A stretch of DNA of 64,000 bases from an uncultured archaeon (GCA_964354805.1 CAYHBD010000009.1:1-64000); one strand, 5' to 3'. Positions 3,001 to 60,626 are shown, numbered from the stretch's first letter. Numbers and translations: made by a program. Notes: generated from the sequence alone by a model not told the origin.

Positions 3001-3446
3001 GTAGATTGGATAACGTGATTCAGTTCATTGCAAACTATGACGACTGGAAAGCAATTAAAAAACTTAAGATAGATGAAAAAACCAAACCAATAACAGTAAT
3101 GGAATTCCTCGCTTCTTTGGGAACAGGCATAGACAGAAAGATTGAGGTAAACCTGCTGAAAATAATCGACCTGCAAAAGCTTTCATCTGCCTTGGCAGAG
3201 CTGCCCAAGGGAAAAACAAGCGAAGAAATAGGCGCAATAATAGCAGATGTGGCAAGCAGGAAAATAAATTCTGTTATAAAGGAAATATGCAACAAGCCTG
3301 AACTGCAGCCCAGAGAGCAAAAGGAGCTGCAGCAATTCTGCCAGGTTTACGCAATGCGCAAGGCATTGAATGCCTGCGAATTGAGCGTTGACTACAGCTC
3401 GGTTGAAGTGCCAGGCATGGGCAGGCTGAAAAAGGCAAAAGTTTAA
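2997..3446 (+). CDS. DUF2666-like conserved archaeal protein
   Basis: IQFIANYDDWKAIKKLKIDEKTKP…EFLAS pattern; 4-nt GTGA overlap with the regulator. Confidence 0.6.
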   Translation: MSRLDNVIQFIANYDDWKAIKKLKIDEKTKPITVMEFLASLGTGIDRKIEVNLLKIIDLQKLSSALAELPKGKTSEEIGAIIADVASRKINSVIKEICNKPELQPREQKELQQFCQVYAMRKALNACELSVDYSSVEVPGMGRLKKAKV

Positions 3447-3514
3447 TAAAAAGAAAACCAAGCGCATGGAAAGCAGGAAGGTTTAATAAAAAGAAAAACT
3501 AATTGATTCCATGT

Positions 3515-4405
3515 ATGGACCTTATTGCTATTATCAACCAGTTTGATGCTGCGGCATTGCATTCAGCGCAATCAATCACCAGCCCAGCCCTTACTCAATT
3601 AATGCTTGCAATAACCTTTTTTGGAACACCTGTTTTCTTTGTCCTAATTGCAGCATTGATTTACTGGCAAGGGCATGAAAACCGGGCCTTCTTTTTAATG
3701 AACCTTACACTGTTCTGCTCTGCTGTTGCAGGAGCATTAAAGTTTGCAATCGCAAGGGAAAGGCCAAGCAGTGATTTTTTTAAAGTGCTTGCATCAGATG
3801 CTGCTTCTCCAGCATTTCCAAGCGGGCACGCAACAATGGCGGCAGGCTTTTTTTCTTACGCTTACACTTTTGTTAAAACAAAAACAAGGGCATTTTTTGC
3901 TTTCATGGTTGCGGCTGTTGCATTCAGCAGGCTATACCTTGGAATGCATTTTCCAAGCGATGTAATCGCGGGAATTGCGCTTGGCCTTGTTTTGGGAAAA
4001 GCAAACCTTTTTGCAAGAAACAGGCTGTTCCACAAGGAATTCAGGCCATCAAAGCTTGAGGACGAGCTCGCATTGGTGGGATTGGTCATTCTGGCTGTTA
4101 TTGCAATAATGTTCCTGCGCTCACTGCCAATGTCAGGCAGTTTCATTGGCTTCTACGCTGGCTTTTTCCTGTTCAAAGAAATGCAACTCAAGCAGCAAAG
4201 GCTAAAAAGCAAAATGCTTGCAGCAAAATGCTTAATCGGTTTCGCGTTACTAGCCCCCTTGTTTTTGGTTGGGGAAAACATTGTCTCCATTGGAATTGCA
4301 TTGGATGAATTGCAGCGCTTTGCTTTATACTGCCTTAGCGGCTTTTGGATAAGCTGGCTTTGGCCAGTAATATTTGAAAAAGCGCTTGGAACAAAAAAAC
4401 ATTAA
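3515..4405 (+). CDS. PAP2-family membrane phosphatase
   Basis: KFAIARERP, FPSGH, SRLYLGMHFPSDV motifs; multiple TM helices. Confidence 0.9.
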   Translation: MDLIAIINQFDAAALHSAQSITSPALTQLMLAITFFGTPVFFVLIAALIYWQGHENRAFFLMNLTLFCSAVAGALKFAIARERPSSDFFKVLASDAASPAFPSGHATMAAGFFSYAYTFVKTKTRAFFAFMVAAVAFSRLYLGMHFPSDVIAGIALGLVLGKANLFARNRLFHKEFRPSKLEDELALVGLVILAVIAIMFLRSLPMSGSFIGFYAGFFLFKEMQLKQQRLKSKMLAAKCLIGFALLAPLFLVGENIVSIGIALDELQRFALYCLSGFWISWLWPVIFEKALGTKKH

Positions 4406-4434
4406 GTTAATATAAATTCGCTGAATAAGTTATT

Positions 4435-4515
4435 AATGCGAGCGGAGCGAGCATATGGCATCGAGCAACCGCAAGGTTGCGAAGATGGCATCCGCGCCAG
4501 CCTCGCGTGAAGGCT
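4435..4515 (+). other. Structured GC-rich 5' leader of tRNA-Tyr (three hairpins)
   Basis: TGC-GA-GC-GGA-GC-GA-GCA; GCAACC-GCAA-GGTTGC; AGCCT…AGGCT; follows a TATA-like TTAATATAAA just after the PAP2 stop. Confidence 0.55.
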
Positions 4516-4652
4516 CCTGCCTTAGCTCAGCCAGTTAGAGCGTCCGGCTGTAGACGATTTGGAAACCTGCTTCGAAAGCAGGCGCGCCAATGCTCCTGCA
4601 AAGGAGTGTGACGGCGACCGGAAGGTCCCCGGTGCAAATCCGGGAGGCGGGA
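4516..4652 (+). tRNA. tRNA-Tyr(GUA) with 63-nt intron at 37/38 (4554-4616)
   Basis: CCTGCCT/AGGCGGG acceptor with C1-G72 and A73; TCCGG-CT-GTA-G|intron|A-CCGGA; BHB helix CTGT:ACGG. Confidence 0.92.
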
Positions 4653-4735
4653 CTTTCGTATTTTTGGGAGCCTTAAAAAACGATGTGTTTAAATTCCGTA
4701 ATTTACAGGATAGCAAACCATACAAGAAAGAGTTG

Positions 4736-4870
4736 ATGAAAATGAAAATAATGAAAATTAAGGGAAAAAGAGAGCCAATAACAATGGCCGAGTGGAAGGA
4801 CATTAAAGATATTGTAAAAGCCCACTTGAAAGAATACAAAGACTTTTACGCAGAGCTTGCAGAATTGTGA
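4736..4870 (+). CDS. Small hypothetical protein, C-terminus resembles short addiction-module antitoxins
   Basis: …DIVKAHLKEYKDFYAELAEL; lies inside the tRNA-Tyr islet. Confidence 0.4.
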   Translation: MKMKIMKIKGKREPITMAEWKDIKDIVKAHLKEYKDFYAELAEL

Positions 4871-4912
4871 GGAGAGCAAGTAGTATTAAAAAGGCAAAAG
4901 GCACTGTGAAAA

Positions 4913-5407
4913 ATGATTAAAGAATATTTTAATTCAAGAATAAGCGCATTATTGGAACTTTTCATAAAGAAACCAATAATGGCAATAATTCCAATGCTCG
5001 TTTTTATTTTTTATTCGCTTCCAATCCTGAAACTATACTTTATCAACCAAAAAGCGTATTTCTTTTTGCTGTTTTGCAGCTATGCTTCAATACTGTCAAT
5101 AGTGGTTTTTTATTTTGCAAACAAAAAAGTCGGAAGGATTGAACAAAAATCAGTGTTCAAAGACAACAATTATCTGAAAGGGCTGGACCTTCCAAGATGG
5201 CTTTTTATAATCTGGGAAACCAGTTTGCTCGCATTATTCCTTTCAGCATTCTTTTCAATAATAGTTGACCTTTTCAGTGTCATATTCAGCCTGCTAAACC
5301 TTATACTCCCTGGAAACGAAAAAGCTGCTGTAACAAGCTCTCTTGGGCTGTCAATAGCAATACTGTTTTTGCTTTTCAACAACGCAATCAACAGGCAAAT
5401 GAGTTAA
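4913..5407 (+). CDS. Hypothetical membrane protein (AT-rich)
   Basis: 164 aa, about 4 hydrophobic segments, low GC. Confidence 0.65.
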   Translation: MIKEYFNSRISALLELFIKKPIMAIIPMLVFIFYSLPILKLYFINQKAYFFLLFCSYASILSIVVFYFANKKVGRIEQKSVFKDNNYLKGLDLPRWLFIIWETSLLALFLSAFFSIIVDLFSVIFSLLNLILPGNEKAAVTSSLGLSIAILFLLFNNAINRQMS

Positions 5408-5547: not shown

Positions 5548-6486
5548 TTGGTTAGAGTGGTTTGGATGGGTTCGGTTAATTGCACTGTTTTGAGCAGGGA
5601 GCTGGCGAAAGAGCTTGGAAAGAAGGAAAACGATTCGGATTTGGAGTTTTATCACAGGGCGTTCGGTGAAAAACTGCTGACATTTGTTTGCCCGAATGGT
5701 TTTCCCGAAAAAGCAGGGGTGTTATTGCAGGCGCTTCATTTGTCAAACTGTGTTTTGCTCTGTGTTGACAAAATCGATGCTTTTTTGGGGGAAGCGATTG
5801 TTGCTATTGACGCAATGGGTTTGAAAACCGGGTTTGTGATTTTTGGCCAGGGCGTTGACAAAGAAATGTTTTGGAAAATCGCGGAAAACACCTTGGTAAG
5901 GGGCTTTGAAGAGATTGAAAAAGAGCAGGCATTGGAAAAGGTTTCTTCTGTCAAGGTGGTTAAAGCAGAGGGGAAAACTGTTGTTGATTTGGATTCAATG
6001 TTCAACGTGCGCGGCGTTGGGATAGTAGCCCTGGGTTTTGTCACGCAGGGCATGATTGAAAGGTTCCAGAAGCTAAAGGCTTTTCCAAAAGGCGCTGAAG
6101 TTTTGGTTAAATCGATTCAAAAGCAGGATAAGGATTTTGCTGACGCAGAATTCAATGAAAGGGTCGGGCTTTCGGTGAAAGGGCTTGATGTTGAAGACTT
6201 TTCGAGGGGAGCTGTTTTAACAAGCGACGATTTTAAAAGCGCGAGCGAGTTTGAGGCAAGCTTTGAAAAAAACAGGTTCTGCAAAAAAGAGCTGCAGGAG
6301 GGGGCAATGCTTCACATTCAATGCAGGATGCAAACTGCGGGGTGCAAAATAAAGTCCTTAAACCCAATCAAAATTGAAACAGGGAAAAAAATTGCGGCCA
6401 GGCTAAACGAAAAAATAGTTTTAATGGATCCCAATGCAAAGCCAAGAATAATCGGAAAAGGAACAATCGCAAAAATCACGCTTTAA
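5548..6486 (+). CDS. Archaeal SelB-like / EF-Tu-fold protein with degenerate G-domain
   Basis: D..FNVRGVGIVALG…VKSIQKQDKD…ERVGLSVKG…FSRGAVL EF-Tu domain II; no GxxxxGK P-loop. Confidence 0.75.
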   Translation: MVRVVWMGSVNCTVLSRELAKELGKKENDSDLEFYHRAFGEKLLTFVCPNGFPEKAGVLLQALHLSNCVLLCVDKIDAFLGEAIVAIDAMGLKTGFVIFGQGVDKEMFWKIAENTLVRGFEEIEKEQALEKVSSVKVVKAEGKTVVDLDSMFNVRGVGIVALGFVTQGMIERFQKLKAFPKGAEVLVKSIQKQDKDFADAEFNERVGLSVKGLDVEDFSRGAVLTSDDFKSASEFEASFEKNRFCKKELQEGAMLHIQCRMQTAGCKIKSLNPIKIETGKKIAARLNEKIVLMDPNAKPRIIGKGTIAKITL

Positions 6487-6543
6487 AACCATGCAAATCC
6501 ATAAGGCAGGGTTACAATTATATATTAGGAATCGCATTATATA

Positions 6544-17324: not shown

Positions 17325-17326
17325 AA

Positions 17327-19641: not shown

Positions 19642-20059
19642 AACATTGAATCGTTCGCTCTGGGCTTTTCATTTCAACAGCGGAAGCTGCAACGGCTGCG
19701 ATATTGAGATTGTTGCTGCACTCACGCCGCGCTATGATATTGAGAGATTTGGAATGAAAGTGGTTGGAACCCCAAGGCATGCTGATGTGCTGCTGCTCAC
19801 CGGGCCTGTTACAAATGATATGGAGGAAAAATTGCGCAGGGTTTTTGAGCAGATTCCAGAGCCAAAGGCGGTGATGGTGATTGGAAACTGCGGCAGCACT
19901 GGCGGGGTTTTCTATGAATCGTACAACATTGCAGGGCCTGCAGATAAAATAATTCCTGTTGATGTTTTTGTTGCAGGCTGCCCTCCAAGACCAGAGGCAA
20001 TAATTGACGGAGTTGCCAAGCTGTGGGCAAAGCTTGAGAAGAAGGTGGACAAGAAATGA
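19631..20059 (+). CDS. mbhJ: Mbh small subunit J (NuoB-like Fe-S)
   Basis: GSCNGCDIE, PRHADVLL, GNCG, GCPPRPE. Confidence 0.92.
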   Translation: MSLKTLNRSLWAFHFNSGSCNGCDIEIVAALTPRYDIERFGMKVVGTPRHADVLLLTGPVTNDMEEKLRRVFEQIPEPKAVMVIGNCGSTGGVFYESYNIAGPADKIIPVDVFVAGCPPRPEAIIDGVAKLWAKLEKKVDKK

Positions 20060-20613
20060 ATGCGAAAGATGCGCTTGATTCATTCAAAAAGCAGTTCGGC
20101 AAAAAGCTCAGCGAAGCGAGGATTGAGAAATTCAAGAACAATGCAAAGAAAAGCAGGGTGGAAAGGATCTGGGTTTCAATTGAACGTGATTCGTTCAAGG
20201 AAGCAGTAAAATATTTGTGCACAATTCACCCAATGCCGCACTTTGCTGTCATTTCAGGCTATCAGATTGGAGATTTGATTGAATTAATTTACCATTTCAG
20301 CCTGAATTACGCAAGCAAACAAGGCGAGTTTTCCTTCAGCATTAAAACAACTCTGCCCAAGGCTGATGCAGTGCTGCCCACAATCACTGACCTCATTCCA
20401 GGCGCCCTGGTTTCAGAGAGGGAAGTGCAGGAAATGCTTGGAGTGAAAATTGAGGGCATTCCTGATTCAAGAAGGCTGTTTTTGCAGAAAGAGTTTCCAA
20501 AGGGCGTTTACCCCTGGAGAAGGGATGAAACAGGCCCTGAAAAAATGGTCAGGAACTTAAGCAAGCCAGCGGAAAAAGATGAAAATTTAAGCAAAGGTGA
20601 AAAGAGTGACTGA
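20056..20613 (+). CDS. mbhK: Mbh subunit K (NuoC-like)
   Basis: ELIYHF…LPTITDLIPGA..SERE..EMLG…RRLFL…YPWR. Confidence 0.88.
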   Translation: MNAKDALDSFKKQFGKKLSEARIEKFKNNAKKSRVERIWVSIERDSFKEAVKYLCTIHPMPHFAVISGYQIGDLIELIYHFSLNYASKQGEFSFSIKTTLPKADAVLPTITDLIPGALVSEREVQEMLGVKIEGIPDSRRLFLQKEFPKGVYPWRRDETGPEKMVRNLSKPAEKDENLSKGEKSD

Positions 20614-20659
20614 AAAGGCAACAGGATTCTTAAATCAAGGCAAAGGTGGCAAGAAATGA
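20606..20659 (+). other. Bridging mini-ORF (17 aa) mbhK>mbhL
   Basis: GTG-start MTEKATGFLNQGKGGKK*; AGGTGA RBS, 8-nt overlap upstream, ATGA overlap downstream. Confidence 0.6.
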
Positions 20660-21894
20660 GCGAGAAAAAAGATAGCAACTCTTTCAGCTTGTCTGTTGGG
20701 CCTGTCCACCCGGCGCTTAAGGAGCCAGTGAGGCTGAACTGCGAGATTGAAGGAGAAAGGGTTGCAAGTGTTGACTTTGAATTGAGCCAGGTGCACAGGG
20801 GCATTGAATGGATGGGCACAAGAAGGAACCCGGTGCAGATAATCACGCTTTCTGAAAGAGTTTGCGGAATCTGCAACATCTGCCACACGCTTTGCTTTTG
20901 TATGTCTGTTGAAAGCATTGCAGGCATTGAAGTGCCTGCAAGAGCGCATTACATCAGGACAATTGTTGCAGAACTGGAGAGAATCCACAGCCATATTCTA
21001 TGGACTGGAATTGCGGCGCACGAGCTTGGCTTTGACAGCGTTATGCACTACACCTGGAGGCTGCGAGAAAATGTGCTTGACACAATCGAATATCTGACAG
21101 GCAACAGGATAACAAAGGCAATGATAACAATAGGCGGAGTGAGAAGAGACATCAGCGAAAAGCAGTATCCGAAAATCAGGGAGTCAATGAATTACTATAA
21201 AGCCAATTTCAATAAATTAAAGGACATTTTCCTGAAAGATCCGATCATTAAATCGAGGACAAGGGATGCCGGAATTTTAACCAGAACAGATGCCCTGCGC
21301 TTGTGCGCTGTCGGTCCTACTGCCAGGGCATCAGGCATCAGAAAGGATGTAAGGCAGGACGAGCCATACGCCGCTTACGCTGAACTTGATGTGAAAGCAA
21401 TAACGCCAAGGGATTTAACAGGAGAAATTAGGGGCGATGTTTTCGACAGGATTATCGTAAGGCTGCTTGAATTGCAGCAATCAATTGAAATAATTGAAAA
21501 GTGCATGCAGCAGATGCCAAAAGGAAAAATAGTGCACGAAGAGAAAATCCCAAAATTGCTTGCTGATTTGCGCAACCTGAGCGGCGAGGGCATTGGAAGG
21601 CACGAGGCTCCAAGGGGAGAGGTATTCCATTACGTTAAATTCACCGGGCAAGAAGCACCCTACGCTTGGAAAATCAGGGCTCCAACTTACAACAATCTCC
21701 TCAGCTGGATTCCGATGCTTCTTGGAGCGCAGATTGCAGACATCCCCATTATTGCAGCATCAACAGACCCCTGTCTGAGCTGCGCTAATAGGGCTGTTAT
21801 TGCAGATATGAGCGAAAGAATAGTGCTTGACAATGATGCACTGCACAAATTGTCTGTTGAAAAAACAATTGAATTGCGGAGGCAATTGAAATGA
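20656..21894 (+). CDS. mbhL: Group 4 [NiFe]-hydrogenase large subunit MbhL
   Basis: GPVHPALKEP, ERVCGICNICH (L1), EAPRGE, DPCLSCANR (L2) plus a cleavable C-terminal extension. Confidence 0.93.
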   Translation: MSEKKDSNSFSLSVGPVHPALKEPVRLNCEIEGERVASVDFELSQVHRGIEWMGTRRNPVQIITLSERVCGICNICHTLCFCMSVESIAGIEVPARAHYIRTIVAELERIHSHILWTGIAAHELGFDSVMHYTWRLRENVLDTIEYLTGNRITKAMITIGGVRRDISEKQYPKIRESMNYYKANFNKLKDIFLKDPIIKSRTRDAGILTRTDALRLCAVGPTARASGIRKDVRQDEPYAAYAELDVKAITPRDLTGEIRGDVFDRIIVRLLELQQSIEIIEKCMQQMPKGKIVHEEKIPKLLADLRNLSGEGIGRHEAPRGEVFHYVKFTGQEAPYAWKIRAPTYNNLLSWIPMLLGAQIADIPIIAASTDPCLSCANRAVIADMSERIVLDNDALHKLSVEKTIELRRQLK

Positions 21895-21941
21895 CTGAAA
21901 TGCCGCTTGCAGAAAGCTTGAATTCAGGCAGAGGCGATTGA
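21891..21941 (+). other. Bridging mini-ORF (16 aa) mbhL>mbhM
   Basis: MTEMPLAESLNSGRGD*; ATGA overlap upstream, TGA-A-ATG downstream; ATTGAAATGACTGAA duplicated. Confidence 0.6.
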
Positions 21942-21942
21942 A

Positions 21943-22947
21943 ATGACTGAACTGTTGTATGCAATGCTGCTTGTGCCAGTTGTTGCAGTGCTTGGCATAA
22001 TTCTCGGGCTTTTCTTCAACGGGATTGACAGGGTGCTTGCCGCAAGAATGCAGGCAAGGATCGGCCCTCCTGTAACGCAGCCTTTCAGGGATATAAGGAA
22101 ATTGCTTTTGAAGGAAACAATTGTCCCAATGCACGCAGTGAAATGGCTTTTCAATGCAATGCCATTGCTTTCCCTGGCAACAGCAATAACAATCCTATTT
22201 TTCATTCCGCTTGCAGGCTTTCCTCCACTGTTGCAGGGCAGCGGAGACCTTATTCTGCTGCTGTATCTGCTGTTATTCCCTTCACTTGCTTTGGTGATTG
22301 CCGGCTTTTCTTCCGCTTCCCCCTATGCAACTGTCGGAGCGCAGAGGGAAATGGTTACAATGCTTTCATTTGAGCTGCCGCTTGCAATCGCCGCTGTTTC
22401 GGTTGCATGGCTGCTTTCAACGGCATTGTGCGGGCAGGCTGTTTTTTCACTTGCAGTAATTGCAGCCAACCCTGTCTGGGGCTTGGTTGGACCGTTCGGT
22501 TTTGTCGGATTGGCAATTCTTTTCATTGCCATGCTGGTTGTAATGCCTGGCGAGCTTGGTTCAATTCCGTTTGATACAGCTGAAGCTGAAACAGAGATTG
22601 CCGGCGGAGTGCTGGTTGAATACAGTGGAAGAAACATTGCATTATTCTATCTGGCTAATGCTGTCAAAACAATTGCCTTTGCCTCAATCACAATAGCATT
22701 GTTTTTGCCTTATGGAATTGCTGCATGGCTTGGCTTAGGCGGAATTGCCGCTGCTTTTGCCAATGCGCTTTTCTTTTTGCTCAAATTGTTTGCCGTTGTT
22801 TTTGTCGGCAGGATTTTCCTGAGAGTTGCGATTCCGAGGCTGAGGATAACGCAGGTTGTCAAGGCATTCTGGGGCTATGCAACCTTTGCTGCCCTGCTTG
22901 CCCTGATGCTGATAATAATTGACGTTGCTTTGCGGGGAGTGATTTGA
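21943..22947 (+). CDS. mbhM: Mbh subunit M (NuoH-like)
   Basis: DRVLAARMQARIGPP..QPF.DIRKLL.KE, PFDTAEAETEIAGGVLVEYSG, PRLRI. Confidence 0.92.
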   Translation: MTELLYAMLLVPVVAVLGIILGLFFNGIDRVLAARMQARIGPPVTQPFRDIRKLLLKETIVPMHAVKWLFNAMPLLSLATAITILFFIPLAGFPPLLQGSGDLILLLYLLLFPSLALVIAGFSSASPYATVGAQREMVTMLSFELPLAIAAVSVAWLLSTALCGQAVFSLAVIAANPVWGLVGPFGFVGLAILFIAMLVVMPGELGSIPFDTAEAETEIAGGVLVEYSGRNIALFYLANAVKTIAFASITIALFLPYGIAAWLGLGGIAAAFANALFFLLKLFAVVFVGRIFLRVAIPRLRITQVVKAFWGYATFAALLALMLIIIDVALRGVI

Positions 22948-29513: not shown

Positions 29514-29577
29514 GAAAGCATTAAAAACAATTAGGTAATAAGTATATTATAGGTAATAAATTTATACTGTGATTTGT

Positions 29578-30197: not shown

Positions 30198-30211
30198 AAC
30201 AAGCCTCGCAG

Positions 30212-30272: not shown

Positions 30273-30313
30273 ATGGAAAAGAATTAAAAGGAAGAAAGCC
30301 ATAATCTTTTTTT

Positions 30314-47833: not shown

Positions 47834-50026
47834 ATGGGCAGAAGAGAGGACATGGTGCATCTTGCAGAAAGCATGATGCAACAAAGAGAGCACATCAGGA
47901 ACATCGGAATAGTTGCCCACATTGACCACGGCAAAACAACAATGACAGACAACCTGATTGCAGCAGCAGGCCTTATCAGCGAAGAGCTTGCGGGAAAACA
48001 GCTGTTCATGGACTTTTATGAACTGGAACAGCAGAGGGGCATTACAATCAATGCAGCAAACATCAGCCTTGTTCACAAGCTTGGCGGAGAGGATTATCTG
48101 ATCAATGTAATTGACACACCAGGCCACATTGATTTTGGAGGAGAGGTAATCAGGGCAATGAGGGCTGTTGATGGCGTTGTGGTTGTTGTTGATTCTGTGG
48201 AGGGGGTCATGCCACAGACTGAAACAGTTGTAAGGCAGGCTTTAAGGGAGCGAGTAAAGCCAGTTCTTTTCATAAACAAGGTTGACAGGCTGGTCAACGA
48301 ACTGCAGCTGAATGCAGAGCAAATGCAGGAACGCTTTGTCAAGACAATTACACAGGTAAACAGGCTGATCAAAAACAATGCGCCGAAAGAATTTGCCGAA
48401 TCCTGGCAGGTTAAGGTAAATGATGGATCGGTTTCATTCGGCTCTGCCTACCACAACTGGGCATTGAATGTCCATTCAATGAAAGAAACAGGCATTAGCT
48501 TCAAGGACGTTTACGATTACTGCAAGAAACAAGACCAGAAAACCCTGGCAAAAAAGAGCCCGCTGCATGCAAGCATTTTGGGAATGGTTGTGCAGCATTT
48601 GCCAAACCCGATGCAGGCACAAAAATACAGGACAACGACAATCTGGGCAGGCGAACTGGAAAGCGAAGTAGGCAAGGGAATGCTTACTTGCGACGAAAAC
48701 GCGCCTTTCGCAATGATGGTAACAGATGTAACGGTTGACCCGCACGCCGGAGACATTGCAACAGGAAGGATTTACAGCGGCGCAATCAAAAGCGGGATGA
48801 AAGTGAAACTTATCGGAGGCCAAAAAGAGGTAACAGTGCAGCAGGTTGTTATCTTCATGGGCCCGGAAAGGGTGACAGTACAGAAGGTTCCATGCGGAAA
48901 CATCGCTGGCCTGGTTGGAATTAAAGAAATCTGGGCAGGTGAAACAGTCAGCAGCGTTGACATGCCGACATTTGAAAGCTTCAAAAGCACTGCAGAACCA
49001 GTTATGACTGTAAGCGTTGAACCAAAGCAGACAAAGGATTTGCCGAAATTGATTGAGGTAATAAGGCAGATTACAAAGGAGGACCCAAACGTTGTTGCTT
49101 CATTGAACCAGGAAACAGGTGAGCACCTGTTGAGCGGCATGGGCGAACTGCACTTGGAGGTAACACAGTACAGGATTGAAAAGGACCACGGCATTCCAAT
49201 TGATGTTTCAACGCCAATTGTTGTTTACAGGGAAACAATCAGAAAAGAAAGCCCGACTTTGGAGGGAAAGAGTCCAAACAAGCACAACAAATTCAAAATG
49301 AGCGTAGAGCCAATTGAAGAAGAGGTGCTGCAGAAGCTGATTGAGGCAAAGATCCAGAAAAAAATCAAGCCAAAGGACAAGGAAATGATTGCAAAATTCG
49401 AGCAAATGGGCTTTGACAGGGACACATCAAGGCGCATCTGGTACGTCCACAACAACAACATTTTTGTTGACATGACCAGAGGCATTGTTGCATTGTTTGA
49501 AATAAAGGAAATGGTTATCCAGGCATTCCAGGATGCAATGAATGAAGGGCCTCTTGCAAAAGAGAAGTGCTTCGGTGTCAAAGTAATCCTGCATGACACA
49601 ACATTGCACGAGGATTCAATCCACAGGGGTCCTGCACAGGTTCTGCCTTCGGTCACCAGAACAATCTTTGCATGCATGCTCAGCGCTGACCCGATTATTT
49701 TGGAGCCAAAGCAAACCCTGTTCATTACGGTTCCACAGGATTACATGGGGGCTGTTTCAAAAGAGCTTGGCCAGAGGAGAACTCAAATCAGCGAAATGAA
49801 GCAGGAGGGAGACGCCTCAATCTTCATTGCAAAAGCGCCAGTGAAAGAGCTTATTGGCTTCAGCGCGAGCATAAGGGGAGCAACACAGGGAAGAGCAATC
49901 TGGACAGCAGAATACGCCGGCTTTGAGCCACTGCCGAGAGAAATGCAGAAAGGCGTGATAGCAGAAGTGAGAAAAAGAAAAGGCTTGGACCCGGAGCCAA
50001 AAAGCGCGGCGTTTTTCTTGGAATAA
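47834..50026 (+). CDS. fusA: Translation elongation factor aEF-2
   Basis: AHIDHGKTT, RGITI, DTPGH, NKVD, diphthamide loop LHEDSIHRG. Confidence 0.97.
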   Translation: MGRREDMVHLAESMMQQREHIRNIGIVAHIDHGKTTMTDNLIAAAGLISEELAGKQLFMDFYELEQQRGITINAANISLVHKLGGEDYLINVIDTPGHIDFGGEVIRAMRAVDGVVVVVDSVEGVMPQTETVVRQALRERVKPVLFINKVDRLVNELQLNAEQMQERFVKTITQVNRLIKNNAPKEFAESWQVKVNDGSVSFGSAYHNWALNVHSMKETGISFKDVYDYCKKQDQKTLAKKSPLHASILGMVVQHLPNPMQAQKYRTTTIWAGELESEVGKGMLTCDENAPFAMMVTDVTVDPHAGDIATGRIYSGAIKSGMKVKLIGGQKEVTVQQVVIFMGPERVTVQKVPCGNIAGLVGIKEIWAGETVSSVDMPTFESFKSTAEPVMTVSVEPKQTKDLPKLIEVIRQITKEDPNVVASLNQETGEHLLSGMGELHLEVTQYRIEKDHGIPIDVSTPIVVYRETIRKESPTLEGKSPNKHNKFKMSVEPIEEEVLQKLIEAKIQKKIKPKDKEMIAKFEQMGFDRDTSRRIWYVHNNNIFVDMTRGIVALFEIKEMVIQAFQDAMNEGPLAKEKCFGVKVILHDTTLHEDSIHRGPAQVLPSVTRTIFACMLSADPIILEPKQTLFITVPQDYMGAVSKELGQRRTQISEMKQEGDASIFIAKAPVKELIGFSASIRGATQGRAIWTAEYAGFEPLPREMQKGVIAEVRKRKGLDPEPKSAAFFLE

Positions 50027-50090: not shown

Positions 50091-50114
50091 AGGGTTACGT
50101 TATAACGTAACCCT
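50091..50114. promoter_or_regulatory. Perfect 24-bp palindrome, operator-like
   Basis: AGGGTTACGTTA|TAACGTAACCCT next to TATATAAA. Confidence 0.6.
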
Positions 50115-50128
50115 ATATAAATGGCAAA

Positions 50129-50155
50129 AAAACAGCGCAGTTCTTTTTGGAATAA
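50129..50155 (+). repeat. Diverged copy of the fusA 3' end
   Basis: KTAQFFLE* vs KSAAFFLE*; 21/27 nt, both Phe codons synonymously changed. Confidence 0.75.
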
Positions 50156-50389: not shown

Positions 50390-51484
50390 ATGCCTAAAGC
50401 AAGAGCAGCAAGAACCTTTGTAATTGCACCTTTCCAAGTAGAGTCAAAAAGAAGAATAATTGGTACGCAGGCTTCTTATGAAGAGGTAAAGAGGGTTGCG
50501 AGACAAGCAACGAGAATTAAACCTGGAAAGGTTGGTTTTGCTGAATTTCTACAAGCATCAGGTGTTGCAGAAAAAAGAAGATACGGCTTGGTTCTCAATA
50601 TAGAAAAAATTATATCTTTATCAACTGCGCCGAGAGTTGGGCAGCTTTTTAGAACACTCTTACAATACTACAGTTCAGCAAACCCAGCGTTTACAAGGGT
50701 GGCACAGCTTGAAAGCCTTGCAGTAATAAAGCAGCTCAGGGGATTGGGCTTTAGAGTCAAAATACAAGATTCTGGGGAAAGAAAAAGAGCGGTATTTGTC
50801 AGGGCCGCACAAAAAGCAGGCGCAATCAGAATAAAAGCCCCCCACGGCATTAGGTCATTTAAACTATTACCAGGGACAGTTTGGGCAAGAGACCAGTGGG
50901 TGAAAATCGGCGGAAAAAAAGAAAAGCCAAAAACAGATATTGCCTCACTGCTTTTTACAGAAGGCCATTTTTTGGGGGAAGGCGGCTCGATGGTTCAAGT
51001 TGGGCCAAGAGAATTTGCCATAGCTGAAAGCATTGTAAGAGACCCAAGGCTGGCAAATTATGAAAGGGCAGGATACAAATTTCAAGTAATGCCTTACGGG
51101 GCTTTTTTTGACAGAGCTCTAACTGATTATTTTGGAACAAGAATTTACACTATTGCCAAGCATTTGGACCTATTAATTGGGGGCATTCCAGAAAAAAGAG
51201 TCGCCGCCATAGACCTGCACTATTACAATGAGCATAGGGAAAGCATTGAACAAATGCAAAGGAGGTTTGGGACAAAAATTATTGTAGTTCCAGAAACAGA
51301 GGCAGACAGGCATCCTCAAAACTTTTTGCCCCTGGGGCAAGGAAAAGTCCTTGTTGATAGCGGGGCTCCTTCCTTAGCCCATATGCTAAAAAACGCCGGC
51401 TTGGAAGCAATTCCAACTGCCGTACCATTAAATGCACTACTGTATAACAGGGGCGGGCTTCACTGCCTTTTCAACGAGTATTAG
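50390..51484 (+). CDS. Amidinotransferase/arginine-deiminase-superfamily (pentein) protein
   Basis: VWARD, EGG, HLD, N.LP, terminal GGLHC; highly basic N-terminus. Confidence 0.7.
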   Translation: MPKARAARTFVIAPFQVESKRRIIGTQASYEEVKRVARQATRIKPGKVGFAEFLQASGVAEKRRYGLVLNIEKIISLSTAPRVGQLFRTLLQYYSSANPAFTRVAQLESLAVIKQLRGLGFRVKIQDSGERKRAVFVRAAQKAGAIRIKAPHGIRSFKLLPGTVWARDQWVKIGGKKEKPKTDIASLLFTEGHFLGEGGSMVQVGPREFAIAESIVRDPRLANYERAGYKFQVMPYGAFFDRALTDYFGTRIYTIAKHLDLLIGGIPEKRVAAIDLHYYNEHRESIEQMQRRFGTKIIVVPETEADRHPQNFLPLGQGKVLVDSGAPSLAHMLKNAGLEAIPTAVPLNALLYNRGGLHCLFNEY

Positions 51485-51609: not shown

Positions 51610-52938
51610 ATGGCTGAAAAACCACACGTTAATTTGGTTTTCATTGGGCACGTTGACCACGGCAAGTCAACCTTAGTCGGCAGGCTATTGTATGATTCAG
51701 GCGCTCTCTCTGAGCAGGAATACAGGAAGCTTGAGCAGACTGCAAAGGAAATGGGAAAGGGAACCTTTGTCTTTGCTTTTGTAATGGACAGGCTGAAAGA
51801 GGAAAGGGAGAGAGGAGTTACAATTGATGTTGCTTACAAGAAATTCATGGGAAAAAAGAACTATTTCACAATAATTGACGCCCCAGGCCACAAGGACTTT
51901 GTTAAAAACATGATTACAGGCACATCACAGGCTGATGCAGCTGTCCTTGTCATTGCATCAAAGGACGGAGTAATGGCACAGACAAAAGAACACGCTTTCC
52001 TGGCCCAGGTTATGGGATTGAAACAGCTTATTGTTGCAATAAACAAAATGGATGAAGTTGCTTACGATGAAAAGAAATTCAAGGAAGTTAAAGACAGCGC
52101 AAACAAGCTTTTAACCGGAGTCGGCTACAAGCCAGAGCAGGTCAAGTTCATTCCATTGTCAGCATGGGTCGGAGACAACGTTGCAAAGAAATCGGAAAAG
52201 ATGAAATGGTATACCGGCCCGACATTGCTTGAGGCATTGGATGAAATAGTTGCTTCAAAGCCGCCGACAGACAAGCCATTGAGGCTTCCTATTCAGGACG
52301 TTTACAGCATTAAAGGAGTTGGCTTGGTTCCTGTTGGCAGGGTTGAAACAGGAACTATTAAGCCAAGCGACAAAGTAATTGTAGAGCCAAGCGGCGTTGA
52401 AGGCGAAGTGAAAACAATTGAAATGCACCACGAGCAGCTGCCACAGGCAGTTCCAGGGGACAACATCGGGTTCAATGTAAGGGGCTGGCAGAAAGAGGAT
52501 GTTGCAAGAGGCGATGTAGTAGGGCATCCAAAGGACCCGCCGACTGTTGCAAAGGAATTCAAGGCACAGATTGTTGTCCTGTCACACCCGACAGCGATTC
52601 CTGTTGGTTACACTCCGGTTTTCCACCTGCACACAGCACAGCTTTCATGCAGGCTTGAAGCAATAGAGAAAACCCTTGACCCAAAAACAGGCGCAACAAA
52701 GGAAGAGAACCCCAAGTTCCTGAAAACAGGGGATGCGGCAATTGTAAGGATTGTTCCAACAAAGCCAGTTGTTGTAGAGGAATACAAGAAATTCCCGCAG
52801 CTCGGCAGGTTTGCAATCAGGGACATGGGCCAAACAGTTGCAGCAGGAATAGTAATCAGCGTAACCCCAAGAGACAAGAAAGAAAAGAGCGACAAAAAGG
52901 AGAAAGAGGGCAATCATAAGCCAGGGGACAAGAAATAA
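51610..52938 (+). CDS. tuf: Translation elongation factor aEF-1alpha
   Basis: [37 protein letters not shown]. Confidence 0.97.
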
Positions 52939-52982
52939 AGCGCCTGGCAAGGGAAAAACAGGAGCAACAAATTTAACGCTGA

Positions 52983-52998
52983 GGGACAAGAAATAAAG
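52983..52998 (+). repeat. Copy of the tuf 3' end
   Basis: GGGACAAGAAATAAAG identical to 52925-52940. Confidence 0.75.
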
Positions 52999-53097
52999 GG
53001 CAAAAAAACTTGGTTCAAAACTATTCAAAGGGGGGACAGTGCTTTTACTGTTCTCTTTTTTATTTTTATTTTGTTTTTTGAGCATTGGTGAGCTGTT

Positions 53098-56363: not shown

Positions 56364-57797
56364 ATGGATTTCAAAAAATTGGGAAATGCGCTCTGGGAAA
56401 TGCCCAAAGAAGCAACAATGCGTGTCCCTGCCAGAGTTTTTGCAACAGAGAAACTTTTCAAGGAAATAGAGCAGGGGGCAATGCAGCAGCTGGTTAATAC
56501 AGCAGCCCTGCCAGGAATTCAGACAGCAGCGCTTGGAATGCCTGACATGCACTGGGGGTATGGATTTCCAATTGGCGGAGTTGCTGCATTTGATGCAAAA
56601 GAGGGCGGTGTTGTCAGCCCTGGGGGGATAGGTTTTGACATCAACTGCGGAGTTCGCCTGATCAGGACAAACCTTTCGGCACAGGAAATAAAGCCCAAGG
56701 TGCGCGAATTGATTGATGTTTTGTTTAACCTTGTTCCGGCAGGTGTTGGGGGGAAAGGGAAAATTAAATTGAATGAAGCGCAGTTGAGGGAGCTGCTGCA
56801 GCATGGGGCGCGCTGGGCAGTGGAGAATGGCTATGGCTGGGAAAAAGACTTGAAACACATTGAAGAGAACGGCGAAATGAAAGGCGCAAATCCTGCAAAG
56901 GTTTCCCAAAAGGCATTGCAGAGGGGAATGCCCCAAAGCGGCACTCTCGGCAGCGGAAACCATTTCCTTGAAATCCAGAAGGTTGAGCAGGTTTTTGACG
57001 AAAAGATTGCAAAAAAATTCGGCTTGTTTCAGGGGCAGGCAGTGGTAATGCTGCACTCAGGAAGCAGGGGCTGCGGCCACCAGATTGCGACTGATTACAT
57101 TGATGTAATGCTTAATGCAATGCAAAAATATGGCATCAGCGTTCCTGACAGGCAGCTTGCCTGCGCTCCGATTGAAAGCAAGGAAGGCCAGGATTACCTG
57201 CTGGCAATGAACTGCGGCGTGAACTATGCATTTGCAAACAGGCAGGCAATGATGCACTGGACAAGAGAAGGGTTCGCACAAATTCTTGGACAAGATGCTG
57301 AAAAGCTCGGCATGGATCTGGTTTACGATATCTGCCACAATGTAGCGAAATTTGAACAGCACGAAATCGGCGGAAAGAAAAAAGAGGTTTTGATTCACAG
57401 GAAAGGAGCCACAAGGGCAATGCCTGCAGGCAGGAAAGAGAACCCCGCTGATTATATGCTCACAGGGCATCCTGCAATAATCCCAGGCAGCATGGGAACA
57501 GCCTCTTATGTGGTTGTTGGAACTGAATCTGGCTTGAAAGAAGCATTCGCTTCTGTAGCACATGGAGCAGGACGCGCAATGTCTCGCACAAGCGCAATGA
57601 AGATGAAGCGCGGTGAGCAGGTGAAAAAGGAGCTTGAAGCAAAGGGCGAGGTTGTAAAGGGTGCCTCATGGGCCGGCCTGGCTGAAGAGGCTCCCGAAGC
57701 ATACAAGGACATTGATGAAGTAATCAAATCAATCGAGCTGGCGGGAATTGGCTTAAAGGTTGCAAAAATGGTGCCATTGGGAGTAATGAAAGGCTGA
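56364..57797 (+). CDS. rtcB: RNA-splicing ligase RtcB
   Basis: MPDMHWGYGFPIGG, GFDINCG, GTLGSGNHF, HSGSRG, HGAGR, EEAPEAYK. Confidence 0.97.
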   Translation: MDFKKLGNALWEMPKEATMRVPARVFATEKLFKEIEQGAMQQLVNTAALPGIQTAALGMPDMHWGYGFPIGGVAAFDAKEGGVVSPGGIGFDINCGVRLIRTNLSAQEIKPKVRELIDVLFNLVPAGVGGKGKIKLNEAQLRELLQHGARWAVENGYGWEKDLKHIEENGEMKGANPAKVSQKALQRGMPQSGTLGSGNHFLEIQKVEQVFDEKIAKKFGLFQGQAVVMLHSGSRGCGHQIATDYIDVMLNAMQKYGISVPDRQLACAPIESKEGQDYLLAMNCGVNYAFANRQAMMHWTREGFAQILGQDAEKLGMDLVYDICHNVAKFEQHEIGGKKKEVLIHRKGATRAMPAGRKENPADYMLTGHPAIIPGSMGTASYVVVGTESGLKEAFASVAHGAGRAMSRTSAMKMKRGEQVKKELEAKGEVVKGASWAGLAEEAPEAYKDIDEVIKSIELAGIGLKVAKMVPLGVMKG

Positions 57798-57832: not shown

Positions 57833-57856
57833 GTTCCGCTTGGGGTAATGAAGGGG
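57833..57856 (+). repeat. Synonymously recoded copy of the rtcB 3' end
   Basis: GTTCCGCTTGGGGTAATGAAGGGG vs GTGCCATTGGGAGTAATGAAAGGC, both VPLGVMKG. Confidence 0.8.
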
Positions 57857-57986: not shown

Positions 57987-59663
57987 ATGATGAAGCCAAT
58001 TTTAGTCATAGCGGCAATTGTGCTCATTTTGCTTTCGTTGCATTTAGGCAGCGTGCAGGCTGCTGAATGCACTGATGTATTCGTGGATGCGCAAGATGTT
58101 GAATTGCGCGGGAACAGCACTGAATACTTTTATTTCCCAATTGAAAACCAGCGCGATGAAACATTTGATATTTATGCTGTTGTTGCATACAAGGAAGATG
58201 CAGACAGCCCCTTTACCATTACTGTAAGTGATTACAGCGATGAAATCGAAGCAGATGGTGAAGGAGAAATCGAATTAAGGGTTGTTGCAAGCGGTGTTGA
58301 CGATGACGAAACCGGCACAGCTTACATTCAAATAAGGGGCTATGTTGGAGATGAATACTGCACTTTTGGTGAAATTGAAGACGCTTATTTTGCAGTAACT
58401 GTTTCAACAGGAAGCACTGGAACGCCCTTATGTGGAAGCATTCATTTGAATGCAAGCAATGTTTCCATTGACGAGAATTCGGCAAAAATAGTTTCTTTTA
58501 CAATTGAAAACACCTCAAACAGGAACTTTGATTTGGATGGAATTGAGGTATCTGAAAACAGCAGCTATTTTGATGCAGAACTTTATTCAAAGCCGGACAG
58601 CATTGACAGCCATGAAAGCCAAACATTCAGGGTGAGAATTGAGGCAAACCAGGTCAGCGCCGACAGGCAGGGCGAAGTTGAGCTAAGGGCAAAAGGCGAG
58701 TTCAGCAACGGCACATATTGCCATTACGATGATTCTGAAGAGGAATCCTTCACTGTAAACGTTGAAAATACCGGCACCCAGCCAAGCCCAGAACCACAGC
58801 CAGGCAATGAATGCCCAGACATTGCTTTGGACAAGCATATTGTAAGGGTTGCCCAGGGAGAAACTGTTTACACCACTTTTCAATTGAGGAATTTTGCAAG
58901 AGAAAACTTTCTGGTTGATTATATAAGTATCTTTGACGGAAGCAATAATTTCAAGGCAGAGCAGAACGGCTATGCAAAGGTTGTGCCAGCTTCGGGGAGC
59001 GCTTTTGTTAATGTAAAGGTTCAGGCACACGATTTCGCTGTGCCAGGCAGTAGGGAAAATGCCTTTGTTGAAGTAAAAGGCCATTTCCAGAACCAGGAAA
59101 GCTGCTCTTTAAGCGGCAATGGCCTTAATACATTTGAGGTAATAATTGAGGAAAAGGGCGCGGCAGCAGAGCCTGATACAGCGGATTTTGCAGCAGAGGA
59201 ATGCAGCCTTTTTTCTTTGATTACACCTGTCTCAATGAAAATTGACGGCAATGGCAGTGTTCCAATTGTAATCGTTAATAAGGCTTATTCAAGGGCAACT
59301 ATTTTGCTTTACGGCCCCGGATTGACCATTAACCCATCCTTTATCAGCGTTGCGGAAAACAGCACAATAAGCGAGGACATTTTGGTTGAAAGCAAATTGC
59401 CTCAGAGCACTCTTGTTTTCACTGTTGATTCGCCCTTGTGCAAAACAGAGAAAAGGACAGTAATAATCAATTCAAAAGCAGCTGCTTCGGCAACTCCGGT
59501 TGCTCCGGCTGAAAAGCCCCAGCCAGCCAATCCAGTAGATGGAACAATTAAAAGCGTTCAGGGAGCGATTGCAACAGGCTTCGCTGTTTTGAACCAGAAC
59601 CTTGCATTAGTCGGACTGGTTATTTTGATTGCAATAATTCTTTTCTTCATTCTGAAAGAATGA
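57987..59663 (+). CDS. Acidic surface protein with repeated Ig-like modules and C-terminal TM anchor
   Basis: Signal peptide; 3-4 Cys-bounded beta-rich repeats; Pro-rich linkers; ATGF plus hydrophobic tail. Confidence 0.75.
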   Translation: MMKPILVIAAIVLILLSLHLGSVQAAECTDVFVDAQDVELRGNSTEYFYFPIENQRDETFDIYAVVAYKEDADSPFTITVSDYSDEIEADGEGEIELRVVASGVDDDETGTAYIQIRGYVGDEYCTFGEIEDAYFAVTVSTGSTGTPLCGSIHLNASNVSIDENSAKIVSFTIENTSNRNFDLDGIEVSENSSYFDAELYSKPDSIDSHESQTFRVRIEANQVSADRQGEVELRAKGEFSNGTYCHYDDSEEESFTVNVENTGTQPSPEPQPGNECPDIALDKHIVRVAQGETVYTTFQLRNFARENFLVDYISIFDGSNNFKAEQNGYAKVVPASGSAFVNVKVQAHDFAVPGSRENAFVEVKGHFQNQESCSLSGNGLNTFEVIIEEKGAAAEPDTADFAAEECSLFSLITPVSMKIDGNGSVPIVIVNKAYSRATILLYGPGLTINPSFISVAENSTISEDILVESKLPQSTLVFTVDSPLCKTEKRTVIINSKAAASATPVAPAEKPQPANPVDGTIKSVQGAIATGFAVLNQNLALVGLVILIAIILFFILKE

Positions 59664-59731
59664 AGCAAAAAATCTAGCGCTTATTTTTTATTCATAAAAA
59701 CAAAAAAAAACTGTTACGGGGGTGAAACTAA

Positions 59732-59884
59732 ATGGCAAAGAAAACAACAAAGAGAAAGAGCATGCGATCAGCAAGAAAAGTTGCGAGAAAAGCAAGCCCT
59801 GTTTACAGGATAAACACGGCTTTCAAGCAGCCAATCAATTTCTTGCAGAACGGATTCACTTCCATAATGAGCTATTTTAAGTAA
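59732..59884 (+). CDS. Small basic protein (50 aa, not in ORF track)
   Basis: GGGGTGA RBS; MAKKTTKRKSMRSARKVARKASPVYRINTAFKQPINFLQNGFTSIMSYFK; hairpin plus T-run follows. Confidence 0.6.
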   Translation: MAKKTTKRKSMRSARKVARKASPVYRINTAFKQPINFLQNGFTSIMSYFK

Positions 59885-59898
59885 ATCCAATAGCACAG

Positions 59899-59937
59899 GG
59901 GGAATTTGAAAATTCCCCGCTTTTTTTCTTTTTTTTT
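59899..59937 (+). terminator. Stem-loop plus poly-T terminator
   Basis: GGGGAATTT-GA-AAATTCCCC followed by long T tracts. Confidence 0.6.
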
Positions 59938-60037
59938 GAATTCAACAACCAGTAGAAACAATTAACGAATTACCATGTAAGGCATAACACAAAAATTTAT
60001 TAACAAAATAAACGCTAATATTATTGAGTGATTTGCA

Positions 60038-60430
60038 ATGAAAATACCAAGAACGCCAGCATGGTTAGAGCGCGAAAGAATATGCCCTTCGACGGACTTT
60101 ATATCTAGAACAGAGGCGGTCAAAGGACCCCTAGTGATCAAACGAGGGCGCATAGTTGCAGGCTTCGAAGATGCCCTTCGCTCTGGGCGTATGAGCCAGG
60201 CGCAGTATTTAGGGGTATACATGAAGGATAACAAAGTTTGGATAACCCATAGGCTGAACTATGACCCTGGGTATAAATTAAGTTATTGGAAATTAAGGAA
60301 TCCACAAGTAATGGCCCTTAGGGTTATTGAGCCAGTAGCTTTGCGCAAAATGGGGACTTCCCGTCCCAAGCCTCGCCGTACCTCCACCCTAAAAAGGCTT
60401 TTTAAAGCTTTCCGAAGCAGAATTAAGTAA
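60038..60430 (+). CDS. Basic hypothetical protein
   Basis: 130-aa R/K-rich ORF after AGTGA; atypical codon usage. Confidence 0.5.
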   Translation: MKIPRTPAWLERERICPSTDFISRTEAVKGPLVIKRGRIVAGFEDALRSGRMSQAQYLGVYMKDNKVWITHRLNYDPGYKLSYWKLRNPQVMALRVIEPVALRKMGTSRPKPRRTSTLKRLFKAFRSRIK

Positions 60431-60439
60431 TATATTGCG

Positions 60440-60567
60440 TACACTGCATCTGTTGCAAGTGCAATGGATGTAAATGCCAATAAGATTGCATTTTCTGATT
60501 GGCGAATTTTTTTGAAGTAGCTCTGCTGCTTCAGCAATGGAACTTGTTCCGTTGATTGCATAGTGTA
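60440..60567 (+). ncRNA. Candidate structured RNA upstream of rpl3
   Basis: Four hairpins, three with G-U pairs, enclosed by TACAC/GTGTA. Confidence 0.45.
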
Positions 60568-60626
60568 GATTCGGTGAGCATGAAATGGCAAGCAGGCAAC
60601 GCTTGCATAGAAATGGTGAAAATTGA

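Follow-up and report, generated by a model that had tools for sequence, protein, structure and literature searches.

Displaced copies of gene ends in the genome of an uncultured Diapherotrites archaeon: possible scars of recombination between diverged relatives

Several genes in a 64,000-nucleotide (nt) stretch of DNA from an uncultured archaeon (GCA_964354805.1, CAYHBD010000009.1:1–64000; in the following, the window) are accompanied by a short, displaced second copy of their own end. How do the ends of conserved housekeeping genes come to be repeated outside the gene, at times with unrelated genes in between? An initial annotation of the window had interpreted these copies as traces of integrase-free cassette capture. 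We find this observation to be real but overstated, and confirmed in part: copies of gene ends occur far above chance throughout the genome, and we lean towards an origin in imprecise recombination between diverged relatives. The window makes up the initial 64 kb of a contig 181 kb long from a metagenome bin (assembly G000; 1.38 Mb in 49 contigs, 44% G+C, 88.5% complete), and homologues of its genes are labelled Candidatus Diapherotrites or Iainarchaeota, i.e. DPANN archaea. It was compared with independently assembled metagenome contigs of relatives (L075, L122 and others) and with other genomes (G001, G009 and others).

A search of gene ends against their own flanks, as the initial annotation had proposed, found an excess over chance. 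When the terminal 90 nt of every gene were aligned (Smith-Waterman) with the 3 kb downstream of it, 59 of 1225 genes showed a tail copy at a score of at least 34, versus none in controls that used another gene's downstream DNA; at a score of at least 30 the numbers were 89 versus 19. Start copies within 300 nt upstream (score at least 32) were found for 28 of 1188 genes, versus 1 in controls, and interior gene segments had a nearby copy in 5 of 401 cases, every period being divisible by 3. A second search used 75-nt gene ends of 1231 long open reading frames (ORFs) called genome-wide as queries; look-alikes within 3 kb at 34 bits or more numbered 44 for 3′ ends and 40 for 5′ ends, versus 11 and 14 for two sets of interior segments, with about 2–3 expected from the match density elsewhere in the genome. 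Tandem Repeats Finder listed 85 repeats with a period of at least 25 nt, 47 of them in or across intergenic DNA, and 33 of the 38 intragenic ones had a period divisible by 3. Gene-end copies are therefore far above chance and respect the reading frame, affecting about one gene in twenty (~5%), and this respect for frames, together with the placement of repeats at gene borders, is a sign of selection and not of assembly error.

By their start-to-start step, from gene end to copy, the pairs fall into three classes:

short class: 44 pairs with a step of at most 135 nt, 29 of them at 43–66 nt
mid class: about ten pairs with a step of 0.44–0.94 kb, with VapBC, PIN or RelE-like genes or orphans between the copies
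long class: step above 1 kb, mostly tandem paralogues

The 5′ copies peak at a matching step of 42–65 nt. Cassette capture, as initially claimed, applies to a minority of copies: 44 of 68 have a spacer of 2–82 nt without cargo, and the cargoes of the mid class are mutually unrelated. Repeats range from 17 to 90 nt in length, and the copies diverge by 13% on average, vary in length and are sometimes triple, three-copy arrays occurring for example on contigs C39 and C43. In the short class the typical copied piece is the last ~30 nt of the gene, stop included; likeness stops at the stop codon (median offset 0), which itself is often switched between TGA and TAA. Of the 44 short cases, 32 have a spacer (10–80 nt) that bears no resemblance to the DNA beyond the second copy, and this holds also for pairs of 95–100% identity. 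In the other 12 the whole unit repeats head-to-tail, as contiguous (6) or full-unit (6) tandem duplications. Median lag-match coverage among the pairs is 0.52 of the period. Several second copies carry a GGTG-type ribosome-binding site and abut or overlap the ATG of the next gene, while many are followed by terminator-like T runs instead of a gene start.

The spacers themselves gave few clues. For the non-tandem short cases neither the vicinity nor the rest of the genome yielded a template. Copying of adjacent DNA into the gap was rejected as their source, given a local match in only 8 of 28 spacers, all of them tandem cases; so was a mobile-element family, as the only content common to the spacers consists of homopolymer runs. 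Sites and spacers showed no motif in common, and each repeat is simply the terminus of its host gene. A hairpin repeat of this genome (family copies at window 31675–31700, G000:C16:23275–23333 and G000:C9:82688–82736) forms two of the spacers: at two gene ends outside the window it lies between direct copies of a gene tail of 27–40 nt. However, another 10 copies of the hairpin lack long direct repeats on either side, and hairpin insertion is therefore not a general maker of such duplications.

The claim that differences between the copies are often synonymous is moderately borne out. Pooled over the short class, mismatches at codon positions 1, 2 and 3 number 50, 46 and 84 (a 1.75-fold third-position excess), and 65 codon differences are synonymous versus 81 non-synonymous, with 21% synonymous expected for random changes. 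The pooled excess is nevertheless close to what duplication in place followed by decay would give, roughly estimated from the 21% figure as one third (33%) synonymous for a constrained live copy and a freely decaying dead one. The ratios are heterogeneous among pairs (P=0.0014), with 7:0, 5:1 and 3:0 on one side and 0:6 and 1:5 on the other, which points to a mixture of origins among the copies.

An array of displaced ends and cassettes follows the gene for a DNA methyltransferase:

28419–29513, + strand: N6/N4 DNA methyltransferase, conserved across Diapherotrites, with its live end E1 at 29438–29513
29569–30197, + strand: cassette A, two overlapping small ORFs (29569–29847 and 29820–30197), the second RelE/ParE-like
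30203–30287, + strand: E2, a displaced methyltransferase end with its own stop (repeat family D3)
30314–30688, + strand: cassette B, an orphan ORF of 124 aa with no Pfam or NCBIfam match
30690–30719, + strand: E3, the oldest displaced methyltransferase end (repeat family D5), contiguous with the DNA that directly follows the methyltransferase in relatives

In this order (E1, A, E2, B, E3) decay increases away from the gene. E2 shares 49 identical nt with E1 (30224–30272 and 29459–29507), and its left arm differs at 8 of 28 positions; with an identical core beside a diverged arm, E2 is therefore a mosaic and not a uniformly decayed copy. The assignment of the second ORF of cassette A comes from protein-atlas features, which score 0.96 to clusters of RelE/ParE; neither Pfam nor NCBIfam gave a match for it, and family scans gave no recombinase match among the cassette ORFs. 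In the empty-site comparison, which drew on L075, L015, L070, L071 and L076, the Joint Genome Institute (JGI) contig L075 (88% nt identity in the gene, 91% downstream) lacks window positions 29520–30688, and with them both cassettes and E2; its gene end passes directly into the DNA that follows E3 in the window. More distant relatives have a 51-aa gene directly after the methyltransferase. At the methyltransferase end 1.17 kb with two cassettes entered, with a pushed-aside end after each cassette. The dead methyltransferase tail retains a K found in relatives; all three ends carry a VVV codon run that L075 does not have. The methyltransferase is near-universal in Diapherotrites and conserved up to ...LEKP, after which a tail of 0–9 residues differs in almost every relative (homologues P0001–P0060), which suggests repeated remodelling of this gene end.

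A second informative border is that of rtcB, for which a close relative is available. L122 (JGI sample 3300035659, 13.9 kb; RtcB 97% identical, genes 90–95% identical at the nt level) shares the backbone of window 51.5–57.8 kb, with other cargo at the same borders.

56364–57797, + strand: rtcB, with its live tail (last 8 codons) at 57774–57797
57833–57856, + strand: dead rtcB tail, the same 8 residues after a 35-nt spacer, with 7 nt differences, all synonymous
57987–59663, + strand: orphan gene of 558 aa after rtcB, with only a sub-threshold NCBIfam match to a choice-of-anchor D domain

In a translated test 0 of 100 shuffled-query controls matched as well as the dead rtcB tail. L122, assembled independently, has the same succession of copy, spacer and copy (step 60 versus 62 nt); its dead tail lies 60 nt after its own stop, and the DNA beyond resembles that beyond the dead tail of the window. 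As the copy is common to both, the structure is inherited and real. At the 7 sites that separate the live and dead tails of the window, the live tail of L122 agrees with the dead one at 5, with the live one at 1 and with neither at 1. Judged from these sites, it is the dead copy that resembles the former resident end, and the live end appears to have arrived later. The dead tails of window and L122 differ by 3 changes over 7 codons, all synonymous (chance about 0.016 by our own estimate), and they stand in different frames. In L122 (11253–11312) the dead tail is in the rtcB frame right after the TAA, and read-through would add 19 residues with the same final motif, PLGVMKG.

Within rtcB, divergence from L122 is 10% overall, rising to 27–42% over ~150 nt (57504–57650), where 19 of 26 differing codons are synonymous; beyond this patch ~90 nt differ by 0–2% and the last 27 nt by 26%. 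The patch may be read as a sign of short-patch recombination with a distant allele. After rtcB, L122 carries a different gene (336 aa, opposite strand), and the intergenic spacers of relatives that are ~90% identical do not align. The rtcB ends of G001, G012 and G009 were cut by contig ends or too diverged for comparison.

The translation-factor genes fusA and tuf extend the picture:

47834–50026, + strand: fusA, tail KSAAFFLE-stop
about 50091–50114: near-perfect palindrome between the two fusA tails
50126–50155, + strand: second fusA tail, KTAQFFLE-stop
50390–51484, + strand: orphan gene of 364 aa between fusA and tuf, no family match
52870–53001, + strand: tuf tail array, with the ancestral tail at 52870–52881, its stop lost
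52882–52935, + strand: in-frame tuf extension of 54 nt, ending in a second tail copy with the live stop at 52936–52938
52983–53001, + strand: third tuf tail copy, 58 nt on, matching 52925–52943 at 18 of 19 positions (0 of 100 controls as good)

Copies in the window were scored by local alignment against 100 random genome segments as controls, unless otherwise given. By this measure the fusA pair (49999–50026 and 50128–50155, score 26, control fraction 0.10) is non-significant alone and is backed by relatives: displaced fusA tails are also present in G001, G009 and L122, with steps of 58 and 62 nt in G001 and G009, and the dead tail of the window retains a Q found in relatives. The fusA spacer, with its palindrome, is the only window spacer tested that folds better than shuffled sequences (z −3.6). 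In several relatives fusA and tuf are adjacent; L122 has other genes between them, and at its fusA border a 560-aa orphan unrelated to EF-2 is followed by a displaced fusA tail, KSAAFFLE-stop. In the EF-2 genes of G012, G006 and G015 (L004, L009, G015:C1:18481–20586) frames of ~1250 aa with split matches suggest an intein near residue 25–45, which the EF-2 of the window lacks.

The tuf products of relatives, L122 included, end in PRDKK-stop or PREKKK-stop; the EF-1alpha of G000 continues for a further 18 residues, a Lys/Glu-rich C-terminal extension that none of the relatives examined has. This extension arose by loss of the original stop, a downstream tail copy providing the new one. The window has 50 nt separating rps10 from rpiB, and L122 has two toxin-antitoxin pairs there; one of them, an RHH/ParE pair, is bounded by a 21-nt direct repeat (5876–5896 and 6470–6490) of the region upstream of rpiB, which is the start-side counterpart of the tail-copy structure. 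The proposal that gene ends act as accretion sites for cassettes finds support in these relatives, with the empty site in L075 and other cargo in L122 at fusA, rps10/rpiB and rtcB. That at least some copies are ends of old or foreign alleles, and not decayed self-copies, is favoured by the rtcB tail (5 of 7 sites), the Q of fusA, the K of the methyltransferase and the heterogeneous synonymous ratios; about a quarter of the short cases, however, are plain tandem duplications.

Further copies lie in the first half of the window:

3438–3457, echoed at 3478–3497, + strand: tail of the DUF2666 gene (2997–3446, Pfam), step 40 nt, 19 of 20 positions identical, 0 of 100 controls as good
20656–21894, + strand: Mbh/NiFe large subunit gene
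21869–21902, recurring at 21918–21954, + strand: duplicated junction after the large subunit (control fraction 0.01; repeat family D14)
24373–24602, − strand: displaced copy of the last 71 codons of hycI, 1762 nt downstream (repeat families D1/D4)
24828–25451 and 25458–26123, strand opposite hycI: two orphan ORFs with hycI and its displaced end on either side, no Pfam or NCBIfam match
26133–26576, − strand: hycI (Pfam)

The hycI end and its displaced copy share 81% nt and 63% aa identity with an unbroken frame, and likeness ends exactly at the stop; within the copy lies a 53-nt core that is 94% identical. Gene, cargo and displaced end thus show a polarised arrangement of displacement. At the Mbh junction the repeat comprises the end of the large subunit with an overlapping stop/start: the first copy serves the stop (21894), and the second, 49–52 nt on, the live start (21943) of a NuoH-like gene. 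Of the displaced ends originally listed, those of DUF2666, hycI, the methyltransferase, tuf and rtcB hold and that of fusA holds via relatives, while the best flank score for the tRNA-Tyr gene (4516–4652) was within the controls. This tRNA is 137 nt long by Rfam, presumably with an intron of ~65 nt, and was missed by ARAGORN. The duplicated starts fared less well. A 25-nt likeness between the ribosome-binding/start regions 20042–20067 and 20643–20667 of mbh, 600 nt apart, is marginal, and neither the nucleotide nor the translated test found a copy before rpl3 (60627). Apart from these loci the window holds a 14-gene Mrp/Mbh hydrogenase cluster with hycI, an orphan at 60038 (no Pfam or NCBIfam match), and genes for FtsZ, S10, RpiB, archease and L3 beside the conserved methyltransferase, EF-2, EF-1alpha and RtcB.

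The pattern is confined to a small clade, namely the genus of G000 and its nearest relative. At a score of at least 30, tail copies affect 4–6% of genes in G000, 5 of 149 in G001 (nearest genus; 0 in controls, steps 43–85 nt) and 4 of 377 in G009, and they are at background levels in G003, G004, G019, the single-contig genome G020 and G026. A search for an enzyme behind this distribution was negative. As initially stated, no integrase or transposase is among the window ORFs scanned with Pfam and NCBIfam; tyrosine recombinase (PF00589) matches in the genome are on contigs C45 and C10 only, outside the window. Besides the XerA-like gene on C45 there is a second, weakly scoring tyrosine recombinase gene at G000:C10:30692–31153 (435-aa frame). 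The number of such genes does not track the pattern, G004 having five and no pattern. NucS/EndoMS is present in G000 and G001, Fen1 in all five genomes tested, with or without the pattern, and Ku was found in no genome tested. Cas1 (PF01867) was found neither in G000 (88.5% complete) nor in the 18 family members searched, and two related genomes sampled that do have Cas1 lack the pattern. Repair-gene content was accordingly rejected as the cause of the clade restriction, as Fen1, NucS, Ku, tyrosine recombinases and Cas1 all fail to track the pattern, and off-target integration by Cas1 was rejected since Cas1 was not found in the family.

Based on this dataset, we consider it somewhat probable that the spare ends are scars of recombination between diverged relatives that ended imprecisely where homology stops. 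Exchange between diverged strains is frequent, and homology among them ends at gene borders: between strains whose genes are ~90% identical the spacers cannot be aligned and the accessory genes at a given border differ, and the genes are mosaics with short hyper-divergent patches, mostly at synonymous sites. A repair or exchange event would begin inside a conserved gene and copy or import a relative's gene end with whatever lies beyond. As the far side has no homology, the event would be closed by an illegitimate joint, which in most cases would be offset by ~50 nt and at times would follow an entire cassette. Selection would retain only outcomes that leave both neighbouring genes intact, i.e. 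those with a duplicated end, and scars would therefore accumulate at stops and starts. The duplicated ends may then act as homology arms, by which homologous recombination with the other copy, or with a matching piece on incoming DNA, could add, swap or delete cassettes without an integrase. Plain tandem duplications by replication slippage would supply a minority of cases. No dedicated cassette machinery is seen.

Several observations weigh against such an exchange. From homology-facilitated illegitimate recombination in its bacterial form one would not expect the narrow step of 43–66 nt. No donor sequence was found for any spacer. The joints of 24 high-identity pairs showed no consistent microhomology on inspection, boundaries being blurred by divergence. 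Twelve of the 44 short cases are contiguous or full tandem units, and the pooled codon-position bias (50/46/84) and the 45% synonymous share are only modestly above the estimate for duplication in place plus decay. At rtcB the direction of replacement rests on 7 sites, because the duplication is shared with L122, and the VVV run of the methyltransferase ends fits copying or conversion within the lineage as well as import.

The main alternative is that all copies are short tandem duplications made in place, by microhomology or by slippage at replication forks or Okazaki flaps, which survived across stops and starts and then decayed with no foreign DNA involved. Archaeal microhomology-mediated tandem duplications, depleted in coding DNA by selection, have been described (PMC13167724; bioRxiv 10.64898/2026.02.28.708716), and the 6 contiguous and 6 full-unit cases among 44, the three-copy arrays on C39 and C43, the nearly always in-frame interior repeats and a pooled third-position excess of just 1.75-fold are as expected from them. 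Yet in 32 of 44 pairs the spacer is unlike the sequence after the second copy while the copies are 90–100% identical. The heterogeneous synonymous ratios and the dead rtcB tail, which matches the live tail of a sister lineage, also speak against this model, and it cannot explain kb-size cargo or why relatives carry differing cargo at one border. Fen1, moreover, occurs both in genomes that show the pattern and in genomes that do not. As a general account it is unlikely, although it deserves the most serious attention among the alternatives. Selection, as opposed to mutation bias, might instead explain the abundance and conservation of the copies, if spare ends were useful either to the next gene, by preserving its promoter, start context or ribosome-binding site, or as a reserve stop and C-terminus. 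The GGTG-type sites at the ATG of the next gene in several cases, the live start within the second copy at the Mbh junction, the termination of tuf at its second tail copy after loss of the first stop, and the purely synonymous differences between the dead rtcB tails (3 changes in 7 codons, chance about 0.016) are in line with this. But such use accounts for retention and not for origin, many second copies precede T runs and not a gene start, the frame of the dead rtcB tail differs between window and L122, and the numbers are small. We consider this explanation improbable.

The other option initially raised was a recombinase that acts in trans. Such a dedicated enzyme (tyrosine integrase, Xer, integron-like or Cas1-like) would insert cassettes at gene ends, and the spare ends would be its sites of the attL/attR type. 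Nothing points to such a system; we regard it as very improbable. The near-identical cores between diverged arms at the methyltransferase and hycI are att-like, a second, weak tyrosine recombinase gene exists on C10, and repeat, spacer and repeat with a ~50–60-nt step recall off-target CRISPR spacer integration. Against this, the repeats are the gene's own end with no shared motif at sites or spacers, they vary in length between 17 and 90 nt, the cargoes show no relation to each other, and neither Cas1 (not found in G000 or 18 family members; two Cas1-bearing relatives sampled without pattern) nor the count of tyrosine recombinases (five in G004) follows the pattern. Hardly any credence is due to strain-chimeric joins or unmerged contig overlaps, even though the genome is a 49-contig metagenome bin and the ~50–55-nt step is close to common k-mer sizes. 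The rtcB structure recurs in an independently assembled JGI contig, G001 and G009 have fusA tail copies of their own (pattern in 5 of 149 genes of G001, steps 43–85 nt), and the copies are diverged (mean 13%), length-variable, sometimes triple and frame-respecting, whereas artefacts would ignore frames.

Recombination between diverged relatives thus remains our preferred reading. A bolder form of it, which we consider speculative and rather unlikely, is that a repair habit specific to this clade, e.g. synthesis copied from a diverged relative and running off the homology, inserts ~50 nt at gene borders; the resulting portable homology arms would let cassettes hop by homologous recombination in an integrase-free exchange network, with some tails re-used as protein ends, as in tuf.

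DPANN archaea are uncultured, and DNA exchange among them is mostly inferred from phylogenies. The scars may provide a sequence-level record of frequent exchange between diverged DPANN strains, and they would show where accessory genes such as toxin-antitoxin pairs and orphans enter compact genomes without a mobile-element enzyme. For annotation they pose a risk: dead gene ends may pass for operon spacers, small ORFs may be called falsely, and C-terminal extensions may be only apparent. If the ~50-nt step reflects a definable repair step, it would offer a handle on archaeal recombination, testable in metagenomic population data.

How does this pattern relate to known systems? Prophages and integrative elements carry a copy of the end of their target gene and so keep the gene intact, and tandem insertions and integron cassettes build arrays. 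Here, too, the end copy keeps the gene intact and arrays form; in contrast to those systems, the inserts, which measure 0.4–1.7 kb or tens of nt, have no integrase in or beside them and share no att or attC motif.

Insertion with long target duplication (Nobusato et al. 2000, via Furuta et al. 2010, PMC2853133) is described there as placing accessory genes without a mobility gene between direct repeats of more than 30 bp, of which the empty-site genome has one copy only. According to that account the repeats can overlap the 3′ end of a gene, with examples that include 46-bp repeats; the cases presented are bacterial restriction-modification systems, and no archaeal case passed the screen reported there (PMC2853133). 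The methyltransferase locus, with its empty site in L075 and repeats of 30–85 nt, resembles these: the repeats are single-copy at the empty site (E1 and E2 share 65–70 nt, E3 30 nt, against the length of more than 30 bp) and the insert contains no transposase or integrase. The cargo differs, being toxin-antitoxin pairs, orphans or nothing, as do the extent (~5% of genes) and the repeats, which are often diverged alleles.

Homology-facilitated illegitimate recombination, or 'homologous recombination at the border' (de Vries and Wackernagel 2002; Prudhomme et al. 2002; Meier and Wackernagel 2003, cited in PMC5361080 and PMC3240628), is characterised in these citing papers as rare, as shown by experiment in naturally transformable bacteria and as usually accompanied by deletions. 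It would share with the present cases a one-sided anchor in a conserved gene, the carrying in of non-homologous DNA and the displacement of resident sequence, and it lacks the characteristic offset of ~50 nt. The mosaic divergence of rtcB and a dead tail that matches the live tail of a sister fit an end joined by homology in a shared gene; no donor was identified. The process also involves a second joint at a microhomology of 3–10 nt, of which the 24 inspected pairs gave no consistent sign, and the uptake of foreign linear DNA by transformation or conjugation.

C-terminal displacement at Rhs and contact-dependent inhibition (CDI) loci and in effector-immunity arrays of type VI secretion systems (Jackson et al. 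2009; Kirchberger et al. 2017, PMC5361080) proceeds by an incoming end that, with a linked small gene, pushes the old 3′ end downstream. The methyltransferase array and the hycI locus are likewise polarised series of orphan ends and cassettes. Those systems, however, are polymorphic toxins with a selected variable tip, whereas the hosts here are housekeeping genes (EF-2, EF-1alpha, RtcB, HycI, a core methyltransferase), whose tips code for one and the same protein terminus. Microhomology-mediated tandem duplication, the short head-to-tail products of which are depleted from coding DNA by selection (PMC13167724; bioRxiv 10.64898/2026.02.28.708716), is matched by the 12 of 44 contiguous or full-unit cases and by the in-frame interior repeats; it differs in that most spacers here are unrelated, some copies are other alleles and the step is narrowly peaked. 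Our literature search found no paper describing the gene-end copy pattern. The processes involved have bacterial precedents; new are the share of genes affected (~5%), the occurrence at housekeeping genes, the sharply defined step length and the presence of such a pattern in DPANN archaea.

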